From NCBI GenBank assembly GCA_039794845.1, contig JAUQVK010000089.1, positions 3,485-46,875 of the forward strand: a stretch of DNA of 43,391 bases. Reading direction: 5' to 3'. The notes below the pieces were generated by a model, which saw nothing but the letters and a program-made list of their open reading frames with translations, ran no database searches and was not told the DNA's origin. The translations under genes and the position numbers were made by a program. The DNA comes from Thermostichus sp. DRC_bins_24. GTDB lineage: Bacteria > Cyanobacteriota > Cyanobacteriia > Thermostichales > Thermostichaceae. Below, one piece after another: positions 571 to 34,224 of the stretch. Numbering within the stretch: the first letter of the stretch is position 1; the number at the start of each line of letters is the position of its first letter.

Positions 571-1515
571 TTATCCCTCCAATAACTTGGTTAGGGTGAT
601 TCCTTCAGGTAGATCGCTATCGTGAATAGCTACATCGTAATCGGCAAACTTACGGGGTGTCAGGATCCCGTCTTTGCGCTGGATTTGGATGCGTTCAAAC
701 AGTTTGTGGGCAGGGGCATTGCCGAGTTTTTTCCCATGGCTGAAGATATACAGGCCTCTTGGGGACATCTGACCGCGGCTGGCACTGCGGTCGAGATCCC
801 ACATAAACATCAAGGCATCCCAGAAAAGTTCGAGATCGGTGCTGGTGACGCCAGTTTGCTCAGCCAAATAAGGGGAGAAAAATCCGTGGGCAACATAAAG
901 ACCGTAGGGAATTAGCGTTTTGCGACCCATTTCGGTAACTTTGCCGCCACCTTTTTTGCTGCCATCCTCAGATTCCAACACTTTAGCATCTTCGGGTTTT
1001 GTGATGGCAATTCGAGTGATCGCCATATCCAAAGGCATAATCGGATCCACCGACCGAGCAAAGGTGATCTGGATGGGGCCACGCACTTGCCCACAATTGA
1101 CCCCTGTGGTCATGACTGCGCCAAACATGCGAATGTCATAAAAGTTTTTGCACATCCAGGTGCGTGCCTTGTTGACATCCTCTCGATTTTGCTTTGTGCC
1201 TGTCGATTTAATTTCGGATGCTTCGTAGGCACGGGCATGCAGATCATTGAGGGCAATCCCTTTGTTTTGAACATAGATTTTGGTGGTTTCCTGTTGGCCA
1301 TATTCCAGGTCAATAAAGTTACGGATTTTCCGCTTAAGACAGACATCGGTTACCAAGCCTTGCATCGTTTCGGGATCGGTTCTGGGCAAGTTGCCGCCAT
1401 CGGGATCCCCATTGGGATTGCCATCTACGACATCAAAGAGCAAGACAAAATCATGGCGTTTTTGTGGATCACAATGAATGGGGGTTTGTTTTGTTTGATT
1501 TGTAGTGTCAGTCAT
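571..1515 (-). CDS. cas7: Type I-C CRISPR-associated Cas7/Csd2
   Basis: NPNGDPDGGNLPRTD, TDVCLKRKIRN, FYDIRMFGAV, GQVRGPIQ and MGRK motifs; follows cas8c. Confidence 0.95.
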   Translation of the reverse strand: MTDTTNQTKQTPIHCDPQKRHDFVLLFDVVDGNPNGDPDGGNLPRTDPETMQGLVTDVCLKRKIRNFIDLEYGQQETTKIYVQNKGIALNDLHARAYEASEIKSTGTKQNREDVNKARTWMCKNFYDIRMFGAVMTTGVNCGQVRGPIQITFARSVDPIMPLDMAITRIAITKPEDAKVLESEDGSKKGGGKVTEMGRKTLIPYGLYVAHGFFSPYLAEQTGVTSTDLELFWDALMFMWDLDRSASRGQMSPRGLYIFSHGKKLGNAPAHKLFERIQIQRKDGILTPRKFADYDVAIHDSDLPEGITLTKLLEG

Positions 1516-1960
1516 GGTTCGTATCTCCTTGAGTGTCCATCTGAGCTTGCTTTTTCTTCTCGGCTCCTTCTACGGCGCGGCGGCGGTTTTCCGCCCGTTG
1601 GTGGTAGTAGCCAAGTCCAAATAGGCTCTGCTGTTGCATGGTTAATGATGTGGGCAGTGTGGCCGGATCCAGGCTGGCTGAGATCTCCTCCAATTGCCGT
1701 TCTAGAGCTTCATAGGTTCCTCTGGAGTCCTTGCGGATTTTTGCCAAATGAGGCTGAGCCTTGGCGATGAGATCCCCCAGGATTTTTTTGGGTGTGGTGG
1801 ATGCAGCTGTGTAGTACCGATCCACCAGGGTTGTATTGATGCCTTTTTGGGCAGAGCGTTGGATAATCTCCAGTTGGGCAAAAAGCCGACCACAGTGATA
1901 GGCCGCTTGATCGGGGGGATCCAGCTCTGGGTTGAGATTCAGGGATTCTAGATTGGGCAT
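1508..1960 (-). CDS. cas11: Cas11 small subunit translated from an internal in-frame start within cas8c (150 aa, MPNLESLNLNPE...)
   Basis: In-frame ATG at 1960 preceded by GGAGGAGG (1973-1980, minus strand), just before the helical C-terminal domain. Internal Cas11 translation is established for types I-B, I-C and I-D. Confidence 0.75.
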   Translation of the reverse strand: MPNLESLNLNPELDPPDQAAYHCGRLFAQLEIIQRSAQKGINTTLVDRYYTAASTTPKKILGDLIAKAQPHLAKIRKDSRGTYEALERQLEEISASLDPATLPTSLTMQQQSLFGLGYYHQRAENRRRAVEGAEKKKQAQMDTQGDTNHD

Positions 1961-3274
1961 AGGGTGGGTTGTCCTCCTCCAGTGAGATAACAAAATCAGC
2001 TTGATCAGGGCCGCACGAGCATGGGGAATGTCTCCTTCTACGGCAGTGCGCCGGTTGGCTTTGGCCAGCAGGTGGTCTGGGATCCCTTCACCTGCTAAGG
2101 CACAACGAAGCAGGGCGGTGGGAACCGTGGGCTGCATTTCTTTATTAGGATCCCGGTAAGCACTGGCCGCCAATGCGTAAACTCCAAAGGGTCTGGCGGG
2201 TTGTCCATAGGGATCCACAATGGTTTGACTTTGGAACCATAGCCTGAGGTTGTCTTGCACATGGGGCACGGTGGTCTGTAGCCAGTCCCGCACCACAGCT
2301 CGGGCATTGTTGGCGGTCAGGGAGAGGGCATAAAATTCATTTTCGTGACCCTCAACGGTGTAGTTTTGTTGGCCAGAGAGAGCTGATTTGAGGAGGTTTT
2401 GCACATCCTCAGCTTCGGGTTTGTCTAGAAGGGAAAAAGGATCAAAATCATCGGGATCCCGTGTCCAAAAGACAAATACATTAGGTTTTACCTGCAGATG
2501 GCTTTTCTCGTCTTTCAATAAATGGTTGAGGGCTTTGCCAAATTTCTCGGCAGCCCTACGGGAGATGGGGGAAGTGAATGAATTCTGTAGGCCATAGGAG
2601 GTAAAGGCATTTGCATTGGCCGAAACTAAAGAAGTGCCTGAGGGTTGGCCATCGGGGATCCCTTTGATGGGTTCGGGCAAGCGATCGACGACCTCAGTTA
2701 TCTGCCCGGTTACTAGGCACATCATGACGGGGAGTGGGTCTGGGTTATCCCCACCTGCTGTGTAGCGTGCCCAAAACTCTTGTATAGCGTGGTTGTCTGG
2801 ATGATCATCAGCCGGGATCCTTGTCCCAACTCGAAAGGTCACTGTACCGCCGGGATCAAACCCTTCGGGCAGTTGAGCCTGTGAGGGATCCCACGTTCCC
2901 AAAAAGTTCTCAATGGCTTGAACGGCAGGATCCCGGGTAGCACCCGCACAGGCCTGGACTAGCTGCTTAAATTGTTGATGGCATTTGGCAACCCGCTCTG
3001 GTTTGGCTCCTTCTTTGGGGATCCCTAGAACGTATTCACCCGTATCCGCCAGCAAAATCGGTTGGATCCCAACTGTTCGCTTTTTGGGCAATTTCGGAAC
3101 AGTTTTTGGGATCCCACGTTGGGTGGCTTTGCTGTCTCCCCCCTGTGGAATAAACCCCAGCAGGGATCCCTGTGGATCCAGATCGATTACCCAGCGAACT
3201 GGGGTCTCGCCATACATTTCGGGTGGCAGATTCAGACGAGTATCGGCGAACTCTTTGAGCTTGGTCAAAATCAT
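1508..3274 (-). CDS. cas8c: Type I-C CRISPR-associated Cas8c/Csd1
   Basis: CLVTG, SLVSANANAFTSYG, NNARAVVRDW and C-terminal AYHCGRLFAQLE...FGLGYYHQR; lies between cas5 and cas7. Confidence 0.92.
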   Translation of the reverse strand: MILTKLKEFADTRLNLPPEMYGETPVRWVIDLDPQGSLLGFIPQGGDSKATQRGIPKTVPKLPKKRTVGIQPILLADTGEYVLGIPKEGAKPERVAKCHQQFKQLVQACAGATRDPAVQAIENFLGTWDPSQAQLPEGFDPGGTVTFRVGTRIPADDHPDNHAIQEFWARYTAGGDNPDPLPVMMCLVTGQITEVVDRLPEPIKGIPDGQPSGTSLVSANANAFTSYGLQNSFTSPISRRAAEKFGKALNHLLKDEKSHLQVKPNVFVFWTRDPDDFDPFSLLDKPEAEDVQNLLKSALSGQQNYTVEGHENEFYALSLTANNARAVVRDWLQTTVPHVQDNLRLWFQSQTIVDPYGQPARPFGVYALAASAYRDPNKEMQPTVPTALLRCALAGEGIPDHLLAKANRRTAVEGDIPHARAALIKLILLSHWRRTTHPMPNLESLNLNPELDPPDQAAYHCGRLFAQLEIIQRSAQKGINTTLVDRYYTAASTTPKKILGDLIAKAQPHLAKIRKDSRGTYEALERQLEEISASLDPATLPTSLTMQQQSLFGLGYYHQRAENRRRAVEGAEKKKQAQMDTQGDTNHD

Positions 3275-3985
3275 TGGGGGATCCTCAAAATGCCACGCTC
3301 GAGTCGAGCCCGAAAAAACTTGGGTTGAGCCTTACCTTTGACAACTTGGGATCCCTGACCATTGTGAGTCAGGTATTGAACGGATCCCGACAAATCTTCA
3401 GTAAACTCGACATCCTGCACCATCAAGCCCAGTTCATCACTTAGGGCAATGGGCTGTTCGGTTCCATCGGGCTCTGTAAAATAGGCGGTGAACTCACGGG
3501 TGCCCAGGTAGGGCTGATGATGACATTGCCCTTTGGCCACACGGCGGCGGAATTGATCCCGGTATTTAGCGACAGGATCGGTAGCATGGGGTTTGAGACT
3601 GATATCGGCCCAGATCAGATAGGCCACATCTCGCAAGCAGAGGGTGTGCCGTTGGGCGCGGTCCTCCTCTGCAAAAAATCCTCCGATGCCATCTTTACTC
3701 CATCCCTGAGCAGATCGGTCGCTCTGCCAGGTGGTGATCTCGTTGCGCAAAATTGAAAAGCGGCGAATTGGCCGGAGTACCCATATTTCCTGCAGCTGCC
3801 AGACAAACTCTGGTTTCCTGCAGCTGCCAGACAAACTCTGGTTTCCAAAAGATCGCCTCCAGGATCCCACGGGCCGCACTGGGGGTCATGACCTCGTAGC
3901 TGACCCGTTCTGCCCCAAACTCAGGGCGTGTGAAACAGGCAAAATCTCCCCAAACCTTAACAGAGAGCCAGCTTGGATGGCTCAT
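3271..3985 (-). pseudogene. cas5: Type I-C Cas5 (Cas5d), frameshifted by a 28-bp tandem duplication
   Basis: N-terminal half (VWGDFACFTRPE...ERVSYEVMTPSAARGILEAIFWKP) is in ORF 3695..3985 and C-terminal half (LRDVAYLI...GQCHHQPYLGTREF) in ORF 3271..3879. Removing one 28-bp copy gives an intact 687-nt frame (228 aa). Confidence 0.9.
3786..3846. repeat. Perfect 28-bp tandem duplication bounded by TTTCC microhomology
   Basis: TTTCCTGCAGCTGCCAGACAAACTCTGG at 3786-3813 and 3814-3841, then TTTCC at 3842-3846. Confidence 0.97.
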
Positions 3986-4060
3986 CGCTCCCCCTCCGAT
4001 TCATGCTTTGGCAGATTACAAACTGTTTTGCGACAAAACAGGTATCCTTTGAAGTTTAGC

Positions 4061-6286
4061 CTACAAAATGAGATCCACAGGATCATAGGCTACAGGCTCC
4101 TGGCCCAACTGGATCCCTTTCAGTGGGTCATAGCCCCCTTCCCACAGCCAGAGGTTGGGGGCGATCTCTGTTCGGGATCCTTCGGAGAGGCGAAACTCAT
4201 GGGGGCGCAAGTTGACCAGATAGGGCTGTAGGGCACGGTGGTCACTTGAAAACAGTCCGCGTCTGCGGATCCGCTGCACAATCTCCTCGCACCCTTCATA
4301 GTTCACCACCACCGGCTGGGATCCCTCAGGGATGAGACGCAATCGTTTGGCCACTTCTGGATAGTCCATAGCCTTGCGCAGGGTTTGGATGTTGTGCTTA
4401 TCCAGCTCAACGGTTTGATACAGACGCTGAAAGTAATCTTGAAAAAGTTCTGAATCTGAGAGGTTCAAAGGGTGGTGTTGCAGCAGTTGTTGGGTTGCGG
4501 CGACAGCAGAGGCATATTCTCCCCTGGGCATTCCCCCGGCTTGAGGTTCAAAGATGACCACCCGTCCCAAATCAGGTTGTTTTCCCTCTCGATTACACCG
4601 ACCTGCCGCCTGCACGATGCGATCCAGCGGCCCCAAAGCCCGATACACCACTGGAAAATCCACATCCACCCCGGCTTCTACCACCTGGGTCGAGATCAAC
4701 CAACAGGAATCCCCGGTTTTGAGTCGCTGCCGTACCTCTCTGAGCACCTGTCGACGATGTTGTCCACACAACAAGGTTGAAAGGTGAAAGAGGCCCTCTT
4801 GGGATCCCAAGGCATCGAGTACAGCTAGGGCATCCTTGCGGGTGTTGAGCACCACCAAGGCCTGCTGCTGATCAGTAATGTCTGATGCCAGATCTGACCA
4901 ACTCCAGGGTTGAGGGGGCAGCTCAATTTGAACACGATTGAGCCGGCGAAAATGCTTCCTAGCCCGCTCGGGAGGGATAATGTCTTGAATCGTTTCAAAT
5001 CCTCTCAAATAATGGGAGTTGCCTTCTAGAGCGGGCTGGGTTGCGGTACACAACACTACGGTGACGCGGTAGTGCCGTACCAAATCTGCCAGTACATTCA
5101 GGATGGGATCCAGAAGCCCCAAGGGTAGGGTTTGCACCTCGTCTAAAATCATCACACTGTTGGCAATGTTGTGGAGTTTGCGGCAGTGGCTGGGGCGATG
5201 GGCAAACAGGCTCTCGAACAGTTGCACCGTGGTGGTGACAATCAAGGGGGCATCCCAATTTTGGGTGGCGAGCCGGGCTTGGGCGTAGGCTTGTTGGGCA
5301 TTTTCATCCAGAGTTTCTCCCGAAGCCAGAGGATCCCGCACGGCGCTGTGATGTTCCAACACGGCGTGGGATCCCAAGATCTGACGATAAATCTCGGCGG
5401 TCTGCTCGATGATGCTGGTGTAAGGAACAGCCACGATGACCCGATCCATGGAGTGGGTTAGGGCATGACGAAGGCCAAAGGCCAATCCACTGCGGGTTTT
5501 GCCACCTCCTGTGGGCACCGCCAAGCGATAGACGCCGGGATCCCCTTGGGCGGCATCCAGACAAGCCTGATAGACTTCTGCTCGCACACGATTCACGGCA
5601 GATTGAGTCAGGGCCGGATCGATTTGATTCAAAAAATCCTGCCGCTCCTGCTGAAAGGAGTTCCACAAATCCTCGATAGACGGATAGTTCCCCCGTTGCT
5701 GGGCTTTTTCCGGGTCAAAATGAGCTTCGGTATCCAGATAGTCGGCATCCACCAATGCCGAAAACAAAAAACGGGAAAAGAGTTCCCACCGCCAGGGATC
5801 CCGTCCTAACTGCTGGATTTCCTGTCTGCACTCAGGGGAGGGCTGAAGGGGGATCCCGTCTTGTTCGGCTCGTTGTAAAATATCTCGATAAACCGCTTGC
5901 CAATTGGGATCCCTGCGTTTTTCCGCCAGCTTGTTTTTTAGGTCAGATGGAGCCGGGATCCCACTGTGATGGCCATAGATCAGGGTGGCGAGTGGGGGAA
6001 GAATTTCTGCGGCCAAAAAAGCTCCATGAATGGCATGGGGCTGGCTGCGCCGCGGGAGAGATGTTCCTTGGGTTGTGGCTTTATGGCACTGTTCAAGATA
6101 AGTCTGGAAAGCAGGATTGTATTTTCCTAAGTCATGCCATAGGCCTGCATAAAACCCCAATTGACCCGCTCCTAATCGATGGGAGAAGGATAGCGCCGTA
6201 TTGGCTACTGATCGCAGGTGATCCTTGAGGTCGTGCCAAGTTCCGAGAGGGTTGGGGGTGTGTGCTTTGGAGGAGCTAAGAATCAT
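4061..6286 (-). CDS. cas3: CRISPR-associated HD nuclease/helicase Cas3
   Basis: HD domain (HDLKDHL, WHDLGK, GHHSG, LVDADYLDT) fused to an SF2 helicase (PTGGGKT, ILDEVQ, TAT, QAAGRCNR). Confidence 0.96.
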   Translation of the reverse strand: MILSSSKAHTPNPLGTWHDLKDHLRSVANTALSFSHRLGAGQLGFYAGLWHDLGKYNPAFQTYLEQCHKATTQGTSLPRRSQPHAIHGAFLAAEILPPLATLIYGHHSGIPAPSDLKNKLAEKRRDPNWQAVYRDILQRAEQDGIPLQPSPECRQEIQQLGRDPWRWELFSRFLFSALVDADYLDTEAHFDPEKAQQRGNYPSIEDLWNSFQQERQDFLNQIDPALTQSAVNRVRAEVYQACLDAAQGDPGVYRLAVPTGGGKTRSGLAFGLRHALTHSMDRVIVAVPYTSIIEQTAEIYRQILGSHAVLEHHSAVRDPLASGETLDENAQQAYAQARLATQNWDAPLIVTTTVQLFESLFAHRPSHCRKLHNIANSVMILDEVQTLPLGLLDPILNVLADLVRHYRVTVVLCTATQPALEGNSHYLRGFETIQDIIPPERARKHFRRLNRVQIELPPQPWSWSDLASDITDQQQALVVLNTRKDALAVLDALGSQEGLFHLSTLLCGQHRRQVLREVRQRLKTGDSCWLISTQVVEAGVDVDFPVVYRALGPLDRIVQAAGRCNREGKQPDLGRVVIFEPQAGGMPRGEYASAVAATQQLLQHHPLNLSDSELFQDYFQRLYQTVELDKHNIQTLRKAMDYPEVAKRLRLIPEGSQPVVVNYEGCEEIVQRIRRRGLFSSDHRALQPYLVNLRPHEFRLSEGSRTEIAPNLWLWEGGYDPLKGIQLGQEPVAYDPVDLIL

Positions 6287-12201: not shown

Positions 12202-13086
12202 TCATCCCCAGGGATCGCCCCAGGGATCCCGAGGATCGCCCCAGTAGCCCCCCTGTTGGGGGGGTGGGGGTTGTGGGGTGGGGGGGGGGGGGATGTACTC
12301 GGTCGGGGCGGGCGGGGGTGGGGTGGGGATGGGGGTGGGTTTCCCCATGTCCTCAAGCCGGGGCAGATCGGCGGGTTTGGGCTCTACACCCAGGCTTCTT
12401 AGCTTGGCTTGCGCCTCTTCCACCTGGGCATTCAATTCTTCGAGGTAGGCGCGGTAGTGGTTGGCGGCCTCTAGGTATTGCTTGGCCTTCTTTTCGTTGT
12501 CGTGGACGACTTCTTGGAGTTCTTTGGTGCGAACGGTATAGTCGGCCTCTTGGTTGGTGAGGTTTTCAATGGCTTGGTTGAGTACGGCACGACGACGCTC
12601 TAGTTGGGCGACGATTTCGGACAGCTGCCGTTCTCGCTCGCTGAGGCTGCGTTCACGGTTCTGGGTTTGTTCCAGTTGAAAGCTGACCTGGCTTAGTTGT
12701 TCTCGTAAGTACATGACCTGAGGCTCGGTTTCGTTGCGTTCCTGCTGCAACTCAAAAACCCGCGCTTCCAGGTTGTCTTTTTCCTGCTGCAACACTTCGC
12801 GTTCGTTCAGTAGGCGGCTGTAGAGCTGATTGATAAAGTCTACCTCCATGACCACCTGACTGAGTTGGGTGGCGTATTCCCCAACTAAGGCCAAATCACG
12901 AGCAAGGTTCTGGGTTTCGCTGGTGGTTTGCTCAGCAAAAAATTGGGGGAGTTGGGTGGTTTCTCTGAGGCGTTGGGTGAACTGCTTGAAGCGGAAGGAG
13001 AAGTTGTTCGCCATTGCGGGTGCGGTAGCCTCGAAGGTCGGGTGATGCCGGTGGTCAGACGTCACGGTGCGTGGTCTGGATCCCAT
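12202..13086 (-). CDS. Hypothetical coiled-coil protein with Pro-rich, DPW-repeat tail
   Basis: Long E/Q/R/L-rich heptad region followed by poly-Pro and WGDPRDPWGDPWG; alternative start at 13014. Confidence 0.75.
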   Translation of the reverse strand: MGSRPRTVTSDHRHHPTFEATAPAMANNFSFRFKQFTQRLRETTQLPQFFAEQTTSETQNLARDLALVGEYATQLSQVVMEVDFINQLYSRLLNEREVLQQEKDNLEARVFELQQERNETEPQVMYLREQLSQVSFQLEQTQNRERSLSERERQLSEIVAQLERRRAVLNQAIENLTNQEADYTVRTKELQEVVHDNEKKAKQYLEAANHYRAYLEELNAQVEEAQAKLRSLGVEPKPADLPRLEDMGKPTPIPTPPPPAPTEYIPPPPTPQPPPPQQGGYWGDPRDPWGDPWG

Positions 13087-16665: not shown

Positions 16666-18240
16666 ATGGCCTCTTCCTGCCCACGAGGGAGGCTATGGAT
16701 AACTCTACCTTGCGGATCCCTGGGGTTGGGGAAGGGATCCGCCCCTATGATGTGTGGAATGACATGGATTTTTCGCTGGGGCATTTCGCGGGAGCTCTGT
16801 GGACGCTTTTTCAAGCTCTCGGCCTACAACATTCTCTCTAACCTGATGGTGCCCTTGGCGGGGCTCTTGGATGTGGCCTTTTTGGGGCATTTGCCGGAGA
16901 TCGAGCCGTTGGCGGGGGTGGCGCTGGCGACGGTGATCTTCAACTTCATCTATTGGTCGTTTGGTTTTTTGCGCATGTCCACCACCGGGTTGGTGGCTCA
17001 GGCTACCGGACAGGGGCATGGGGATGAGGCGTGGCGTATCGGGCTACGGGCGATGACCCTGGGGTTGGGGATCGGGTTGCTGCTGTTGCTGCTGCATCAC
17101 CCTTTGCGGGAGGTGGGGTTTGCGCTGCTCGAGGGTACGGACACGGTGAAGGCGGCGGGGCGAGCCTATTTCAATGGGCGGATTTTGGGGGCTCCGGCCT
17201 ACTTGCTCAGTTTGGCGATGTTGGGCTGGTTGTTGGGCAAGGAGCGGGGCGGGGCGGTGTTAACCCTTTCGGTGGTGGGGAATGGAGGGAATGTGCTGCT
17301 GAATTATATCGGGGTGGTGCTACTGGGTTGGGGTAGTTGGGGGGCGGGTTTGGCGACGGCGGGTAGCGAGTATTTGATGGTGCTGACGGGGCTGGTTTGT
17401 CTGGTGTGGGCTCCGGAGGAGGGCACGCTTTGGCAAAGGGTGCGGAGGTTGTGGGGATCCCTGCGCGTCTGGCGTACCCTGTGGCAGGGGGCGGATCTGC
17501 GGGTGCTCTTCAGCCTGAATGGGGATATTTGGGTGCGGACGTTTGCGCTGGTTCTGAGTTTTGCCCTGTTTACCCAGTTCAGTGCGGGTATGGGCACGGC
17601 CATTCTGGCGGCGAATACGGTGTTGCTGCAGGTGCTCTCTTTGGCGGCCTATGTTGTGGATGGGTTTGCTTTTGCCACCGAAAGTTTGGCGGGGTTTTTC
17701 TACGGGCGCAAGCAGGGGGAGGCTGGAGAGGGGGCGGTGCAGCAGTTGTGGGGGGTGTTGGGGTTGGCCACCGGGCTGAGTTTGCTGGTGGGGGTGGCGA
17801 TTGCCCTGGGGTTTGTGGGGTTTCCGGGCCGGTTGTTTGGGTTGCTCACAAGCCAAGGGGTGGTTTTGGGGCAGATTGAGCGGTTTGTTGCTTGGTTAAT
17901 TCCGGTGCTGGGGCTGGGATCTTTGGCGTTTGTTTTGGATGGCTATTTTCTCGGCCTCACAGAAGGGGTGACGTTGCGCTGGGCGAGCCTGTTTTCAACA
18001 ACCGTTGGCTTTTTGCCTGTGGGACTCTGGGCTTGGGCAAGGCAGGATCCGCAGCTACTCTGGTTGGCAATGGCGGCGTTTATGGCGGCGCGGGTGATCA
18101 GTCTGGGATCCCAGGTGCCGCGAACTTTAAAATCGTCCTCCGGACGACCCGGAGGGTTATCGTCCTCCGGACGACCCGGAGGGTTATCGTCGAGTACCGA
18201 GAAGACTGATGATGATGCTCCTCTTGCGAAACCTAAGTGA
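16666..18240 (+). CDS. MATE family efflux transporter (DinF-like)
   Basis: NILSNLMVPLAGLLDVAFLGHL, FGFLRMSTTG and DGFAFATE; about 12 hydrophobic segments; start uncertain. Confidence 0.88.
   Translation: MASSCPRGRLWITLPCGSLGLGKGSAPMMCGMTWIFRWGISRELCGRFFKLSAYNILSNLMVPLAGLLDVAFLGHLPEIEPLAGVALATVIFNFIYWSFGFLRMSTTGLVAQATGQGHGDEAWRIGLRAMTLGLGIGLLLLLLHHPLREVGFALLEGTDTVKAAGRAYFNGRILGAPAYLLSLAMLGWLLGKERGGAVLTLSVVGNGGNVLLNYIGVVLLGWGSWGAGLATAGSEYLMVLTGLVCLVWAPEEGTLWQRVRRLWGSLRVWRTLWQGADLRVLFSLNGDIWVRTFALVLSFALFTQFSAGMGTAILAANTVLLQVLSLAAYVVDGFAFATESLAGFFYGRKQGEAGEGAVQQLWGVLGLATGLSLLVGVAIALGFVGFPGRLFGLLTSQGVVLGQIERFVAWLIPVLGLGSLAFVLDGYFLGLTEGVTLRWASLFSTTVGFLPVGLWAWARQDPQLLWLAMAAFMAARVISLGSQVPRTLKSSSGRPGGLSSSGRPGGLSSSTEKTDDDAPLAKPK
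18132..18191 (+). repeat. Two tandem copies of a 27-bp small dispersed element inside the MATE C-terminus
   Basis: ATCGTCCTCCGGACGACCCGGAGGGTT at 18132-18158 and 18159-18185, then ATCGTC; encodes SSSGRPGGL twice. Confidence 0.93.
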
Positions 18241-29151: not shown

Positions 29152-29321
29152 TACAGCCCTTGCGCGGGTTTTCTACAGCAGGGATTGTGCTTCCTGTTCT
29201 CGCTCCGCAAGGTGCGGAGCACTAGCCTTCTAGAGATCGGATCCTAACTCCCTCCTAACTCCCACAGTTGTTCTACGCGACCGGCGGACACGCCGGTGTG
29301 CCCTGGGCGTAAAGGGCTGTA
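29152..29321 (+). mobile_element. MITE-like element, copy A (170 bp)
   Basis: TACAGCCCTT...AAGGGCTGTA terminal inverted repeats; internal blocks shared with the copies at 39394 and 40846. Confidence 0.8.
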
Positions 29322-29450
29322 TCAATTGGATAACTAAGTGCGGTTACTGTACTAGCTAATTAGCGAAAGGGCTGTATTCTCGAACTACAGTTGGTGATGC
29401 AGCCGGGACTGCTTCTGCTCAGGCGAAAAGATTATGGAAGAAAGATGATG

Positions 29451-29599
29451 GAAGGTGTAGTCGCACCGTCCTCTGAGGATTCGTTACCGAGAGAAGCACA
29501 GGGTGGGGCAAGTCGATATGTTGGTGGACATCAAGTGTCACGCGATACATGGTCGTCTCCCACCCTGCCTCCCGGTCCTGAGGCTGAGCCTACACCCTC
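29451..29599. ncRNA. Candidate long imperfect rod-like hairpin, unidentified
   Basis: Nested complementary blocks: GAAGGTGTAG (29451-60)/CTACACCCTC (29590-99), CCTC/GAGG, AGGA/TCCT, CAGGGTGGG (29499-507)/CCCACCCTG (29559-67), CGATATGT/ACATGGTCG. No family recognised. Confidence 0.3.
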
Positions 29600-29645
29600 T
29601 GCTTCAGTCCTGTCCCCCCATAAAGAGCGATATAGAGATGCGATG

Positions 29646-29724
29646 TAGGAAAGAGAAACGAGAAACGAGAAGTGAGTAATGAATCCTCCCCCTCACTCCT
29701 CACTTCTCCATCCTCACTTCTCCA
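29646..29724 (+). repeat. Heptamer-hairpin element, copy 1 (79 bp, intergenic)
   Basis: TAGGAAA-GAGAAAC-GAGAAAC-GAGAAGT-GAGTAAT-GAATCCT-CC-CCCTCAC-TCCTCAC-TTCTCCA-TCCTCAC-TTCTCCA; identical to copy 2. Confidence 0.95.
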
Positions 29725-29893
29725 CGGCCGGTGCCGCGCTGCGAAGGGGGGGAGGGAGCTGTTTCAGCCTTCAGGTGCAGTTGCCCGTTTTCATCTTTCT
29801 TCGGGCTGGAGACCCCCGCTGTAGCGTAAACTCAGTGCTGGGTAATTTACTTGCCCTATGAGCATTCTGGCTGCAGATGGTTCAGCTGTAAAC

Positions 29894-29936
29894 TGTTTCT
29901 GAAGTTACAAAACCCAGCGAAGGGATCCCTTAAGCT
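29894..29936 (+). promoter_or_regulatory. Putative NtcA-activated promoter
   Basis: tGTT-N8-TACa (29895-29908; one mismatch to GTA-N8-TAC), then 22 nt, then TAAGCT (TAN3T) at 29931. Confidence 0.55.
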
Positions 29937-30065
29937 CACCCTAACTTTGCAAGCCTTCGAGGGGAGCTTTTGGCCCATGACTGCCGTTCTCAGCCCCAGC
30001 ACTGCCGCTGACCGGCTCGCCGCCTGTATAGCGGAATGGCAAGGGATCGAGCTGATTACAGAGAG

Positions 30066-30144
30066 TAGGAAAGAGAAACGAGAAACGAGAAGTGAGTAAT
30101 GAATCCTCCCCCTCACTCCTCACTTCTCCATCCTCACTTCTCCA
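30066..30144 (+). repeat. Heptamer-hairpin element, copy 2 (79 bp, intragenic)
   Basis: Identical to copy 1; interrupts the oxidoreductase after ...LITE. Confidence 0.95.
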
Positions 30145-30395
30145 CCGAGATCAGCCCTATTCTCAGTGGGCAATTGGCGGATAAGCGCGCGCATGTCGTC
30201 GCCCGGCCCGCAGATGAGGCGCAAGTGATTCGCATTGCCCGTACCTGTGCCCAAAAGCGGATCCCGATCACCCTGCGGGGAGGGGGAACCGGCAATTATG
30301 GGCAGGCTGTGCCTCTGTACGGTGGCGTGGTTTTGGATCTATCGCGTATGCAGCGGATCGGTTGGCTGAAGCCGGGTTTGGCACGGGTAGAAGCA

Positions 30396-30467
30396 TAGGA
30401 AAGAGAAACGAGAAGTGAGTAATGAATCCTCCCCCTCACTCCTCACTTCTCCATCCTCACTTCTCCA
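30396..30467 (+). repeat. Heptamer-hairpin element, copy 3 (72 bp, intragenic)
   Basis: Same sequence minus one GAGAAAC unit; interrupts the oxidoreductase after ...RVEA. Confidence 0.95.
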
Positions 30468-31643
30468 TGGATTGGGAGCTGCGCATGTTCCCTTCCACAG
30501 CGGCCACCTCCACCTATGGGGGCTTTTTGGGAGGGGGCTTCGGTGGTGTTGGCTCGGTCAACTACGGCATTTTGAAAGAGCCCGGCAATGTCTATGCGGT
30601 GCGGGTGGTGACGCTGGAGGACGAACCACGGGTTTTGGAGTTGCGGGGATCCGATGTGGGACAAGTCACCCATTCTTGGGGCATGAGCGGCATCATCACG
30701 GAGCTGGAAATTTCTTTGGCACGGGCCCAACCCTGGGCGGAGTGTATCCTTGCGTTCTCAAATGTGATGGATTCGGTACGCTTTGGGTTTGAGTTGGCCA
30801 AGGCCCCCGGGATCCCTACCCGCTTGGTGAGTCAACATGCCTGGCCGATCCCCAGCTACTTCACCGCCCTACGAGACCACATTCCCGTCGGATCCCACTG
30901 TGTACTGGCGATTTTCACCGAATCTGGATATGAAGCCCTGCAAGATCTGGCTCAAGAGCATGGGGGCACCCTCTGCTTGGCCAAAGCCGCTGCGGAAGCC
31001 GGCAAAGGAACGACCCTCACCGACTACTGCTTTAATCACACCACCCTGCACGCCCGCGCAGCGGATCCCGGACTCACCTACATTCAAAGTCGGTTTCCTG
31101 CTGACCAAGCCGAGAGTTTGCGGTTAATTGAGCAGATGATCCAGCACTTTGGGGAAGAAGTGGTCATGCATATCGAGTTTCAACGGGTGGGGGGGCGAGT
31201 TATCGCCGGGGGTGGGCAGGTGGTGCGCTATTCTACTCCCGAACGACTGCAAGAAATTATGGCCTTTCATGAGCAGCAGGGCGTAACCATTCCCAACCCC
31301 CACACCTACATTTTGGAAGAAGCTGGCAAGAAGGTCGTGGATCCCAAGCAGGTGGAGTTTAATCGGCAGGTGGATCCCTATGGGTTGCTCAACCCGGGCA
31401 AGACTCTTTCTCGCCCGGCTTTTAATCATTTCAATGCGTAAAGAAAGGGTTCATTTGGATTCTGTTTGCGACCAAAAGATCATTGCTTTCTTAAACAAGA
31501 GACTTATATTCCCTCTGTCAATCTGAACCTTGATTGGGGCAGCTCATTATTTCTCAATGTCTTTCCAGTTGACCAGACTGAGTATCTCTCTCGGAGTTCC
31601 TCCCAGTTGAAGCTCTGCAGCCGTCATCCAAAAAACAGAATTT

Positions 31644-31735: not shown

Positions 31736-32821
31736 ATGCTGTTTCTGAAAGGGTTTTATGGAGGTTTGGCGTTTATGAAGCCGGGTTTTAGCACAGGGAT
31801 CCCCCAAGGGCTGATGGCAGGGATGACCTGGGCTGTGGTCAGTGTTGGTATGGGATCCCCGTTGATGGTTGGATCCCTTGGAAGCCTTGCCCAAGCCCAA
31901 AGCCAAACTCTTGATCAAGTGACTTTTGGCACTAGTTGGTATGCCCAGGCGGAGCACGGCGGCTTCTATCAAGCGGTGGCCACAGGCATTTACGAAAAAT
32001 ATGGCCTGGATGTAACCATTCAGATGGGCGGCCCGAACGTCAATAACGTGCAGTTGTTGATGGGGGATGTTCTGGATTTGATGATGGCCCCCAACAATTT
32101 GACGGTGCTCCGACCTCTGGAAGAGGATGTGCCGATCATGGCAGTGGCTGCCATTTTCCAGAAAAATCCGCAGGTGATTATTGCCCATCCCGACGTAGAA
32201 TCTTTGGCAGATTTGAAAGGGCGACCCATTTACATTAGTGCCAGCGCCGCGATGGGCTATTGGCCTTTTCTGGAGTCGAGATTTGGCTTTACCGAAGATC
32301 AAAAGCGCCCCTATAATTTCAGCGTTTCCCCCTTCATTGTCGATCCCACCTCAGCCCAGCAGGGGTTTCTCACCTCGGAGCCGCTGGCGGTGGAGCGGGA
32401 AGGAGGATTCACCCCGTCAGTGTTTTTGCTGGCTGATGCCGGCTGGGCTCCCTACGGCAGTTTGATCGCCACCAAGCGCGACACGGTTGAGTCGAATCCC
32501 GATTTGGTGCAGCGCTTTGTCAATGCTTCTATCGAAGGTTGGTACAGCTTTTTCAAAGATCCGCAGCCCGCGTTTGAGCTGATCAAGATCGACAACCCCG
32601 ACATGAGCGACGAACAACTGGCCTATTCCTTCCAGAAGCTACAGGAGTACGGCATCATCGACTCGGGCGATACCGCTACCCTGGGCATTGGCGCCATGAC
32701 CGATGAACGTTGGGAAACCTTCTTCAAGGAAATGGTTGAGGCTGGGGTATTGCAAGCCGAAACTGACTTTCAGCAGGCTTACACCCTCGATTTTGTCAAC
32801 CAAAGAGTTGGCATGGATTGA
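31736..32821 (+). CDS. ABC substrate-binding protein, NMT1/THI5 family
   Basis: FGTSWYAQAEHGGFYQA, GGPNVN, AAIFQKNPQ, QQGFLTSEP, GIGAMTDERW. Confidence 0.9.
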   Translation: MLFLKGFYGGLAFMKPGFSTGIPQGLMAGMTWAVVSVGMGSPLMVGSLGSLAQAQSQTLDQVTFGTSWYAQAEHGGFYQAVATGIYEKYGLDVTIQMGGPNVNNVQLLMGDVLDLMMAPNNLTVLRPLEEDVPIMAVAAIFQKNPQVIIAHPDVESLADLKGRPIYISASAAMGYWPFLESRFGFTEDQKRPYNFSVSPFIVDPTSAQQGFLTSEPLAVEREGGFTPSVFLLADAGWAPYGSLIATKRDTVESNPDLVQRFVNASIEGWYSFFKDPQPAFELIKIDNPDMSDEQLAYSFQKLQEYGIIDSGDTATLGIGAMTDERWETFFKEMVEAGVLQAETDFQQAYTLDFVNQRVGMD

Positions 32822-32841
32822 CGTTTCACCTGCGTAGGATC

Positions 32842-34224
32842 ATGACCACCACCTTTCTCACCCCCCAACAAACCTCGGCTTGGCAGGCATTTCTGGCCCA
32901 ATTGCAAGGGATCCCTTTAATTACGGATGAGGCCCAAATTGCCCGTCTTTCCCAGGATTGGCACAGCCTCAGCCCGGTGTTGTCGCGGCAACTTTCGGAC
33001 AAACGCGGGGATCTGATCGTCTGCCCCGGCCATGAGGCGGAAGTGGTGCAGGTGGCCCAAGCCTGTGTTGCCCATCGCGTGCCGCTCACCATTCGGGGGG
33101 GTGGAATGGCCAACTACGGGCAGTCTGTCCCTCTGCAGGGGGGCATCGTCCTGGATATGTCGCGTATGCAGCAGATCTGCTGGTTAAAGCCGGGATCCGC
33201 GCGGGTGGAGGCGGGGGTGCGCCCCTTGGCCCTAGAAAAGCAAGCGCGAGACATGGGCTGGGAACTGCGGTTGATCCCTTCTACCTTTCGCACAGCCACG
33301 ATGGCAGGGTTCATCGCTGGAGGCAGTGGCGGTGTTGGCTCCATCGCGTTTGGGGGTTTAAGAGCCCGTGGCAATGTTCTTGGGGTGCGTGTCGTCACCT
33401 TGGAGGATCCGCCGCGAGTCTTGGAGCTGCGGGGGGATGAAATCCAGAAGGTGAACCACGGCTGGGGCTTAAACGGCATCCTCACCGAGGTGGAGATTCC
33501 TTTGGCTCCGGCCTCGCCTTGGGCAGAGGCGATCCTGGCTTTTCGGCCCGAACCCGGCGAAACCCCTCAACAGGCCTTGATGCGGGCGGTGCGTTGTGGT
33601 TATGCCTTGGCAGCCAGTGACGGGATCCCGAAACGGCTCCTCAGCTTGCAGGCATGGCCCATTCCCACCTATTTCCCAGCTTTACGGCCCTTGGTCCCAG
33701 AGGGATCCCATTGTGTGCAGGTGATTTACTTTGAGCCCAACCATGAGGCCCTAGCAGACTTGGCTCAAGAGTACGGTGGCAGCCTTTGTTGGCAAAAGCC
33801 TGCCGGAGAGGTGGGCCGCTCCCCCACCCTGATGGAATACTGCTTCAACCATACGGTTTTGCACGCCCGAGCCGCAGACCCCGGCATTACAGCCATTCAG
33901 GGCAAATTTCCCGCTCAGGGCGGCCCGGAGATGGTGGAGCACTTGGTCGAACACTTCGGCGACGAGCTGATGATGCACTTCGAGTACAACCGCATCAACG
34001 GTACGATCACCGGCGGTAGCGGCCATTTGGTGCGTTTTAGCAGCGAAGAACGCCTGCAGGAAATGATGCGCTACGAAAAAGAACTGGGCTGTTTGGGGCC
34101 CAATGTCCACAGCTATTTGATCGAAGAAGTTGGGCGCAACACCCCCCAGCTCATCCTCGACTTTAAGCGAGAGGGGGATCCCTATGGGCTGCTGAATCCC
34201 GGAAAAACCCGCTGCCTACTGTAA
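32842..34224 (+). CDS. FAD-binding oxidoreductase (intact paralog)
   Basis: RGGGMANYGQ, WELRLIPST, GFIAGGSGGVGS, DPYGLLNPGK. Confidence 0.9.
   Translation: MTTTFLTPQQTSAWQAFLAQLQGIPLITDEAQIARLSQDWHSLSPVLSRQLSDKRGDLIVCPGHEAEVVQVAQACVAHRVPLTIRGGGMANYGQSVPLQGGIVLDMSRMQQICWLKPGSARVEAGVRPLALEKQARDMGWELRLIPSTFRTATMAGFIAGGSGGVGSIAFGGLRARGNVLGVRVVTLEDPPRVLELRGDEIQKVNHGWGLNGILTEVEIPLAPASPWAEAILAFRPEPGETPQQALMRAVRCGYALAASDGIPKRLLSLQAWPIPTYFPALRPLVPEGSHCVQVIYFEPNHEALADLAQEYGGSLCWQKPAGEVGRSPTLMEYCFNHTVLHARAADPGITAIQGKFPAQGGPEMVEHLVEHFGDELMMHFEYNRINGTITGGSGHLVRFSSEERLQEMMRYEKELGCLGPNVHSYLIEEVGRNTPQLILDFKREGDPYGLLNPGKTRCLL

Follow-up and report, generated by a model that had tools for sequence, protein, structure and literature searches.

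How a short DNA hairpin that encodes no enzyme of its own can come to lie inside a gene with host bases missing, rather than duplicated, is the question that this locus raises. The window, i.e., the whole stretch of 43,391 nt analysed here, corresponds to C89:3485-46875 of a 3.5-Mb metagenome-derived assembly (115 contigs, 99.9% complete by marker genes) from a cyanobacterial genus of hot springs and carries three copies of such a hairpin, two of which split the gene of a FAD-binding oxidoreductase (FAD-oxidase gene hereafter). The initial annotation had read them as a recent, locally spreading element that inserts and replaces, for example by template switching, RNA-templated repair or patching of nuclease cuts. 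Many bacterial genomes are full of small hairpin repeats (REP, SDR, STRR-like arrays), and the route of spread is understood for few of these. The events studied here are young, with both junctions readable and the untouched allele persisting in a neighbouring population, and their signature is unusual in that the target is overwritten rather than duplicated.

The hairpin element and its copies in the window

The three window copies come from one family of a non-autonomous, 72-79-nt repeat and lie as direct repeats on the + strand (Table 1). The segments 29645-29725 and 30065-30145 are 100% identical across 81 nt (that is, the core plus one base on each side), and 30388-30468 is the same element without one GAGAAAC unit; the repeat analysis of the window therefore bears out the earlier description of three same-orientation copies that differ by a single such unit. 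The cores start TAGGAAAG and end CTTCTCCA. In each copy, two 30-nt arms that are 77% complementary and spaced 10 nt apart form an imperfect inverted repeat, GAGNNNN heptamers of the purine arm facing their complement in the pyrimidine arm, and Tandem Repeats Finder reports periods of 7 and 14 in both arms. The arms extend to both ends of the element, which means that terminal inverted repeats are present; the earlier statement that there are none is a matter of wording, the paired arms themselves being such repeats.

Compared with shuffled sequences, the element folds well as single-stranded DNA (z of -3.2 for the + strand and -4.6 for the - strand), with folding energies of -14.9 kcal/mol on the - strand vs. 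-11.1 kcal/mol on the + strand as DNA, and of -37.8 vs. -23.3 kcal/mol, respectively, as RNA. G-T/G-U pairs account for this large advantage of the - strand. An Rfam search of the element returned at best 29 bits or less against cut-offs of 47-100 (sub-threshold microRNA-precursor look-alikes, i.e., generic hairpin matches), and a terminator and promoter scan did not call the elements.

Table 1. Features of the locus and further copies of the hairpin element. Positions without a contig prefix are those of the window.
Feature	Position	Strand	Remarks
Unrelated MITE with inverted ends	29152..29376	.	Abuts X; well over 100 matching pieces in the genome
Repeat unit X	29377..29771	+	395 nt, carries copy 1; three genome copies (C26 97.7%, C94 95.5%)
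Hairpin copy 1	29646..29724	+	79 nt, two GAGAAAC units, inside repeat unit X
48-nt tail of X	29724..29771	+	Common to a ~130-nt repeat family of ~20-30 copies
FAD_binding_4 oxidoreductase gene	29977..31441	+	Split by copies 2 and 3: 29977-30065, 30146-30395, 30468-31441
Hairpin copy 2	30066..30144	+	79 nt; replaces 29-34 nt (~11 codons) of the FAD-oxidase gene
Hairpin copy 3	30396..30467	+	72 nt, one GAGAAAC unit; replaces 39-40 nt (13 codons)
Intact paralogue	32818..34224	+	Pfam PF01565; aligned with the split gene
Element copy	C26:30993-31073		In repeat X, same setting as copy 1
Element copy	C94:364-429		In repeat X, same setting as copy 1
Copy a	C14:33902-33985	opposite	Variant
Copy b	C14:34819-34871		3' end truncated
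Copy c	C14:34875-34951		Full copy adjoining truncated b
Copy d	C14:35061-35130		Without the first 7 nt

Host bases are overwritten at copies 2 and 3

The split FAD-oxidase gene, whose middle piece gives the Pfam match PF01565, has uninterrupted orthologues in G004 (C1:114192-115622) and G010 (C100), the two nearest species. At the site of copy 2, both orthologues and the paralogue have 34 nt in the alignment vs. 80 nt in the window. The letters (G)TA at the left joint and CAC at the right joint are common to element and host, and therefore at least 29 nt were replaced; that is, 75-80 nt went in and 29-34 nt went out. For copy 3, the corresponding figures are 40 nt in these three sequences and 72 nt in the window, i.e., 72 nt in and 39-40 nt out.

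The untouched allele could also be read in a close relative. Two hot-spring samples of one study contain this stretch, X1 (the probable source) and X2, and a 694-nt, element-free contig of X2 shows 17 differences from the window over 560 aligned letters (~97% identity). Between 30394 and 30467 this contig has 40 other letters where the window has the 72-nt element, and it has ~57 letters vs. the window's 104 at 30066-30169 (joint from 30065 to 30170; the 57 is arithmetic from coordinates). An exact pre-insertion sequence is available for copy 3 alone, from a 97% strain, and those of the other copies are taken from orthologues of ~75-81% DNA identity. The loss of about 11 codons at copy 2 and 13 at copy 3, which the initial annotation had deduced from the paralogue, agrees with the orthologues, the paralogue and the contig of the element-free strain. 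The alignment with sister orthologues that it had proposed finds the 29-34 and 39-40 nt still present in element-free relatives: G004, G010 and X2 all keep the codons that a simple insertion would have found already missing. Host DNA is replaced, not duplicated, at copies 2 and 3. As a general description, insertion with replacement is not universal, since copy a on C14 lost only ~0-3 nt; copy 1 lies outside host DNA.

The age of the events can be judged from the gene itself. Among the differences between the X2 strain and the window in the coding pieces, 21 of 24 fall at third codon positions, and the three host pieces contain no other stop or frameshift and are all open; the FAD-oxidase gene was therefore under selection until recently. 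Together with the ~100% identity of all nine copies found (below), this supports the earlier reading of the insertions as recent.

Copies elsewhere in the genome

The genome search for further copies that had been suggested yielded, by BLAST against the whole assembly, nine copies on four contigs (C89, C26, C94 and C14), all ~100% identical. They are strongly clustered, with three inside 0.8 kb and four inside 1.25 kb of a 3.5-Mb genome, and nine pairs of copies lie 1.3 kb or less apart vs. ~0.03 expected for nine random places in 3.5 Mb (by arithmetic). The local spread that the initial annotation had proposed is supported. The presence of the element on three contigs besides that of the window also means some long-range movement; at two of these (C26 and C94), the element may simply ride in repeat X. 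A longer parent element, which the initial annotation had suggested looking for, did not appear: the whole-assembly BLAST returned just the nine short copies and chance matches, with no insertion sequence of matching ends, in an assembly whose 115 contigs could leave such a parent unassembled. A genome scan for a purine run followed by a pyrimidine run recovered the known copies and one other heptamer hairpin (C6:73948-74077), the remaining matches being short GC-rich hairpin repeats of another kind.

The element has no match in the two nearest species, G004 and G010; G005, G006 (a closed genome of 3,046,682 bp) and G008 contain diverged look-alikes that are 75-80% identical to it. The hairpin sites of G005 are variable linkers or intergenic spacers at which all genomes differ, with no clean filled and empty lengths. 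Exact scans of public collections, which may omit the genome itself or very near ones, found the 26-base centre of the element in 0 metagenome contigs and 0 genome contigs, and a 25-base piece of the pyrimidine arm in 0 genomes and one unrelated metagenome contig (L062) that carries a different heptamer hairpin. In the literature on JA-3-3Ab hairpin/heptamer repeats and on STRR heptamers, we found no element of this kind.

The cluster on C14 shows three further outcomes. Copy d lies inside a SpoIID-like gene, where G004 has ~30 nt (10 codons) vs. ~73 nt in the window's genome. Copy a is flanked by a BioY gene and an inositol-monophosphatase-family gene, at a site that is empty in seven relatives, and 0-3 nt at most were lost there. 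Copies b and c form a truncated-plus-full tandem between the end of the phosphatase gene and codon 206 of the SpoIID-like gene, whose first 205 codons are absent from the assembly. In relatives the two genes are on separate contigs (G004) or 92 kb apart on opposite strands (G006), and the b/c tandem therefore marks a rearrangement junction (a synteny break). Hence, the sample of events consists of three clean replacements, one simple insertion and one rearrangement junction, all from one metagenome-derived assembly.

Junction anatomy

The junction sequences, as read, contain no target-site duplication or flanking direct repeat at any copy, as the initial annotation had observed for the window. 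The element ends are ragged. TAGGAAAG is the start of seven copies, and that of copy d is shifted inward by 7 nt; CTTCTCCA is the end of five, copies c and d stop 3 nt earlier with identical non-canonical letters, and copy a ends within the pyrimidine arm. The three C14 copies a, b and c are all preceded by GG before the core. Microhomology ranges from 0 to ~5 nt: copy 2 shows 3+3 nt, copy 3 has 0-1 nt and the right end of copy c ~4-5 nt (~CTTC), and the left end of copy d is weak in this respect; these values depend on pre-insertion sequences taken mostly from orthologues of ~75-81% identity.

Four of the nine copies are genic, all in the sense direction of the host gene. As a side observation, the loop of the element offers a start codon in the reading frame of the host piece that follows in 4/4 genic copies, for which the chance expectation is ~0.2 (two of the three frames offer one). 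The lost segments (three or four only) show no common motif evident by eye, and their BLAST against the genome gave chance-level matches of at most ~16 nt.

Candidate machinery and CRISPR

A domain scan of the window ORFs (32 of the 46 that reach 150 aa, along with one of 99 aa; the others are overlapping alternative frames) found no transposase, consistent with what had been noted from the sequence. In the whole assembly, RVT_1 (PF00078) and GIIM (PF08388) were not found, and control genomes did give matches; searches of the assembly for Ku and 23S_rRNA_IVP were likewise negative. The sole Y1_Tnp match (PF01797, weak, 21 bits; C103:11473-11631) has its frame broken by stops or frameshifts, i.e., it is a relic, and no element lies on that contig. 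TnpB gave 20 matches in the assembly, 0 of them on the element contigs C89, C14, C26 and C94; one match shares a contig, at a distance of ~3 kb, with the ~130-nt repeat family that has the tail of X. A driver gene could be unassembled given 115 contigs.

Type I-C cas genes lie at the start of the window and a CRISPR array further upstream on the contig. The initial annotation had remarked that the lost segments are about the size of a CRISPR spacer, and a search lends this no support: 0 of the 26 assembled repeat-plus-spacer units (C5, C13 and C89) match them, and the longest match to the genes, 14 nt, falls outside the lost segments, the arrays touching contig ends and the spacer set thus being incomplete.

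Repeat X and related sites in sister species

Copy 1 is carried by repeat X, ~200 nt upstream of the FAD-oxidase gene; neither X nor an element-free version of it was found in 11 other genomes of the genus. The copies of X show ~12 substitutions outside the hairpin and none inside, where ~3 would be expected, a difference that hints that the hairpin may be younger than X or may be kept uniform. Further, the members of the ~130-nt family have a GC-rich hairpin of ~30 nt at the position that the heptamer hairpin occupies in X, and this one comparison suggests that the hairpin may have been put into X rather than being native to it.

A parallel exists in sister species. A DUF1156-type methylase gene that is uninterrupted in G004 has heptamer hairpins at two sites in G008, one of them with a 23S-IVS-protein gene inside, surrounded by heptamer hairpins. 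G011 has different, GC-rich hairpin repeats at both of these sites, and one of them contains a DUF559-like segment (read from the sequence). The methylase reading frame is open through the inserts in both genomes. Compared with G004, 27 and 33 nt are replaced in G008, with boundaries taken from a protein alignment to an orthologue that is 70-78% identical.

Mechanism

The reading that we favor, tentatively and at somewhat less than an even chance, is that the hairpin was copied from a nearby donor, as a patch, by template switching during the repair of a break or gap or during replication. Under this hypothesis, copy 1 would have arrived within the 395-nt repeat unit X, and a nearby copy would then have served as the source of copies 2 and 3, whose entry into the gene would have displaced 30-40 nt each time and killed or split the FAD-oxidase gene. 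Copying rather than cutting would be involved: the event would start at a break or gap, or with a nascent strand that has stalled, and priming would take place on a nearby hairpin copy via 0-5 nt of microhomology; the tract would be copied roughly from stem foot to stem foot, with the hairpin setting its limits, and the strand would then resume on its own template after skipping a few tens of bases. No element-encoded enzyme would be needed. We infer the nearby copy as the donor, breaks or gaps as the trigger and the stem as the boundary of the tract.

Several lines of evidence lead us to prefer copying. There are three genic replacements (copies 2, 3 and d, the last with ~73 nt in and ~30 nt out), target duplication is absent and the ends are ragged. 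Extra letters are common within clusters (copies 1 and 2; the GG of a, b and c), microhomology occurs at some joints (GTA/CAC at copy 2 and ~CTTC at copy c) and the clustering is extreme. Moreover, the b/c tandem sits exactly at a synteny break, a junction of the sort produced by template switching, no partner enzyme was found in the assembly, and SPDIR, i.e., short-patch double illegitimate recombination (below), is a known precedent. Taken together, copying from a nearby donor fits the signature better than cut-and-paste transposition does. Template switching or patching, two of the routes named in the initial annotation, would fit best. Generic template switching predicts neither the identical 75-nt unit each time nor three losses within 29-40 nt; microhomology is weak for copy 3 (0-1 nt) and on the left side of copy d, the presence on three other contigs asks for movement over longer distances, and the donor-to-recipient direction is one that we infer.

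Because copying leaves the constant unit and the 29-40-nt losses unexplained, a hairpin-specific enzyme that cuts twice stays a serious rival, even though we consider it rather unlikely. Such a dedicated enzyme would act in trans, recognize the folded hairpin and integrate it while cutting the target at two points 30-40 bp apart, with the piece between them lost; it would be akin to a REP-associated or IS200/IS605-type single-strand transposase, to an integron-type recombinase that works on a folded strand, or to a twice-cutting nuclease, and would be undescribed, unassembled or lost. The far better folding of the - strand is what one would expect if one folded strand is the substrate, the heptamer hairpins that surround the inserted 23S-IVS-protein gene in G008 point the same way, and in size and shape the element is like the REPINs (PMC3116915). 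However, no intact candidate gene was found in the assembly (Y1_Tnp is a frameshifted relic, and RVT_1 and 23S_rRNA_IVP were not found), the ends vary by 3-7 nt among copies, one copy lost no host bases, and no motif is evident by eye in the lost segments, although these number just three or four.

It is intriguing to speculate that heptamer hairpins represent a distinct class of mobile DNA that moves by “copy and overwrite”, with a defined machinery that removes 30-40 bp (approximately three to four helical turns) and fills the place with a copy of the folded element; we would call this unlikely on the present data. If true, target-site deletion, not duplication, would be the hallmark of the class and hairpin repeats would overwrite one another, which would explain the heptamer hairpin of X vs. 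the GC-rich hairpin of the related ~130-nt family as well as the different hairpin repeats of two sister species at the same two methylase sites.

Alternatively, free single-stranded hairpin DNA (e.g., a nuclease-resistant remnant of a degraded strand that had carried the element) might anneal at microhomologies on exposed lagging-strand template and be incorporated in the manner of an Okazaki fragment, as in SPDIR, an explanation that we regard as clearly improbable. A stable stem would protect such a fragment and define its ends within a few bases, and classical end joining is unlikely since Ku was not found. The sizes in and out fall within the 3 to ~100 bp of SPDIR, and same-genome sources and microhomologies are SPDIR features (10.1101/2023.11.22.568220); the same source gives a very low rate for the process, just above 1e-13 per cell and locus in the wild type, which speaks against this explanation. 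Further, a diffusible fragment leaves the tight clustering unexplained, and no extended microhomology between donor flanks and targets was found by eye.

The remaining alternatives are considerably weaker. A two-step history, i.e., simple insertion, death of the gene and then unrelated small deletions beside the hairpin, draws on the fact that hairpins provoke deletions nearby and on copy a, which is a plain insertion with 0-3 nt lost. We nevertheless find it very improbable: copies 2 and 3 retain the two element ends in full, so the deletions would need to begin exactly at the element edge, three independent losses of 29-40 nt would have to occur with nothing else changed in the gene and all three host pieces open, and samples X1 and X2 contain no intermediate allele. 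RNA-templated repair or retro-insertion of the hairpin RNA, the remaining route of the initial annotation, appears highly improbable: the sense orientation of 4/4 genic copies and the great stability of the hairpin as RNA speak for it, but neither RVT_1 nor GIIM turned up in an assembly that is 99.9% complete, it is the strand antisense to the host genes that folds better, and inheritance from a local donor would explain the orientation as well.

Finally, that the three-element locus is an artefact of assembly is extremely improbable, even though repeats break de Bruijn assemblies and no contig of the samples crosses the whole element, since independently built contigs of X1 tie every unique flank to 19-30 nt of the element, host bases are missing exactly at those joints and the same signature is present on another contig (C14). 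The junction support that had been sought was accordingly obtained in part: all unique flanks run into the elements, and no X1 contig spans a whole element or reaches a 31-nt bridging criterion. Summed contig depth in X1 was 1293 over the arms vs. 17 at the unique flanks, a figure that mixes in the repeats of other organisms and gives no copy number.

The choice between copying and a dedicated enzyme matters beyond this locus. If host repair or replication alone multiplies a structured repeat, this would be “selfish” spread without a transposase and a way in which genes are lost and rearranged in these hot-spring cyanobacteria; a dedicated two-cut enzyme, if at work, would represent a new integration chemistry. 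Either way, the locus provides a concrete test bed for how such repeats move.

Comparison with known systems

The element shares with MITEs its small size, terminal inverted repeats (the two arms), lack of an ORF and several identical copies, but differs from them in having no target-site duplication, variable ends, replaced host bases and no parent insertion sequence in the assembly. Its 7-nt periodicity recalls the cyanobacterial STRR heptamer arrays reportedly described by Mazel et al. 1990; STRRs, however, are tandem arrays at fixed places, whereas the element is a purine array facing its complement in identical, dispersed copies. The SDRs of the Nostocaceae, attributed to Elhai et al. 2008, are said to be tiny, non-autonomous cyanobacterial repeats with hairpin potential, an association with heptamer arrays and no transposase of their own. 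Nesting without transposon hallmarks is a further likeness, copy 1 lying within X and copy c abutting the truncated b. SDRs reportedly measure 21-27 nt, as opposed to the 72-79 nt of the element, and according to PMC5861425 none were found outside the Nostocaceae.

REPINs (PMC3116915) are similar in being imperfect hairpins of two inverted halves, ~70-110 nt long, non-autonomous and near-identical among the copies of one genome. They are extragenic, whereas 4/9 copies here lie inside coding sequence and host bases were lost. REPINs are mobilised by RAYT (Y1 HUH) transposases; they accompany a single-copy RAYT gene, usually flanked by the repeats, whereas no intact Y1 gene was found here. Membership among retrons, group II introns or other retroelements receives no support, as no reverse transcriptase gene was found in the assembly.

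Alternative end joining and FoSTeS/MMBIR produce a small deletion together with an insert copied from nearby, at 0-5 nt of microhomology, and complex rearrangement junctions. The templated insertions of these processes also come close to what we see, with the difference that arbitrary nearby sequence is copied there, as opposed to the same structured unit each time. The closest described process is SPDIR (Harms et al. 2016, as described in 10.1101/2023.11.22.568220), in which a heterologous patch of 3 to ~100 bp is taken up at microhomologies. As in that description, a short host stretch is replaced by a short patch (here, at three sites, 72-80 nt in for 29-40 nt out), donors from the same genome are possible, and there is neither target duplication nor an element-encoded enzyme. 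SPDIR as described there, however, is a rare, one-off event with varied donors, whereas here one 72-79-nt hairpin has been used at least five times, in tight clusters, and has become fixed in a natural population.

Start and stop codons in the element loop

The loop of the heptamer hairpin element carries stop and start codons that overlap (TAATG and GTGA), as seen at 30092-30102 and 30415-30425 of the window and at about position 2582 of the extracted contig C14 locus (L013). Since a start codon shares the reading frame of the downstream host piece in each of the four genic copies, the host-gene fragments could be translated by re-initiation, although the probability of such an outcome by chance is ~0.2 and we draw no conclusion from it.

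On contig C14, a truncated copy (b) and a full copy (c) of the element stand in tandem and join an inositol-monophosphatase-family gene to a SpoIID-like gene, which is entered at codon 206; its first 205 codons are absent from the assembly.

Coordinates of the CRISPR-Cas locus, repeats and gene inserts (window coordinates unless a contig or locus is named; G000, this assembly; G008 and G011, sister-species genomes)
Feature	Location	Remark
Type I-C cas genes (Cas7, Csd1/Cas8c, Cas5d, Cas3) and CRISPR array	571-6286; C89:30-905, upstream of the window	- strand (571-6286)
Element tandem, truncated (b) and full (c)	L013 (G000:C14) 2320-2455	Synteny break
Different heptamer hairpin	G000:C6:73948-74077 (L040)	Second kind in G000
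~130-nt repeat family with GC-rich hairpin	29724-29771; ~20-30 other G000 places, e.g., C13:41639-41688, C98:24828-24877	
DUF1156-type methylase gene, G008:C61 (L033)	Inserts 488-964 and 1061-1339	
DUF1156-type methylase gene, G011:C19 (L038)	Inserts about 1770-1905 and 2013-2705	

Neighboring repeats and the CRISPR-Cas locus

Repeat X, the 395-nt unit that carries the first window copy, is adjoined by a MITE with inverted ends (29152-29376), and the genome holds well over 100 pieces that match the family of this MITE. Within the ~130-nt family, tiny insertions seem to be nested, because an internal segment of ~27 nt is present in some members and missing from others.

Beyond the cas genes, further upstream on the contig of the window, lies a CRISPR array with 13 repeats or more. 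The Cas5d reading frame (3271-3879) contains a 28-nt perfect tandem duplication (3786-3846), and cas5d may be damaged, given that the Pfam match is confined to the C-terminal two thirds of the frame. Elsewhere in the window, a 27-nt perfect tandem repeat of 2.2 copies with hairpin potential (18132-18191) is placed where the MatE and ABC-permease reading frames meet, and a long G-rich stretch with runs of G and GGGGT-like units (12258-12339) adjoins an unannotated reading frame.

Hairpins and inserts in a methylase gene of sister species

The purine arm of the second kind of hairpin contains three 21-nt units, and this hairpin resembles the 21-nt array in the methylase insert of G008 (~80% identity). 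The inserts of G008 comprise heptamer hairpins and a 23S-IVS-protein gene in another frame; those of G011 comprise GC-rich hairpin repeats and a DUF559-like segment. The methylase gene of a further sister-species genome (G004) is insert-free, and in both G008 and G011 a single open reading frame persists across the large inserts, which occupy the identical two sites.
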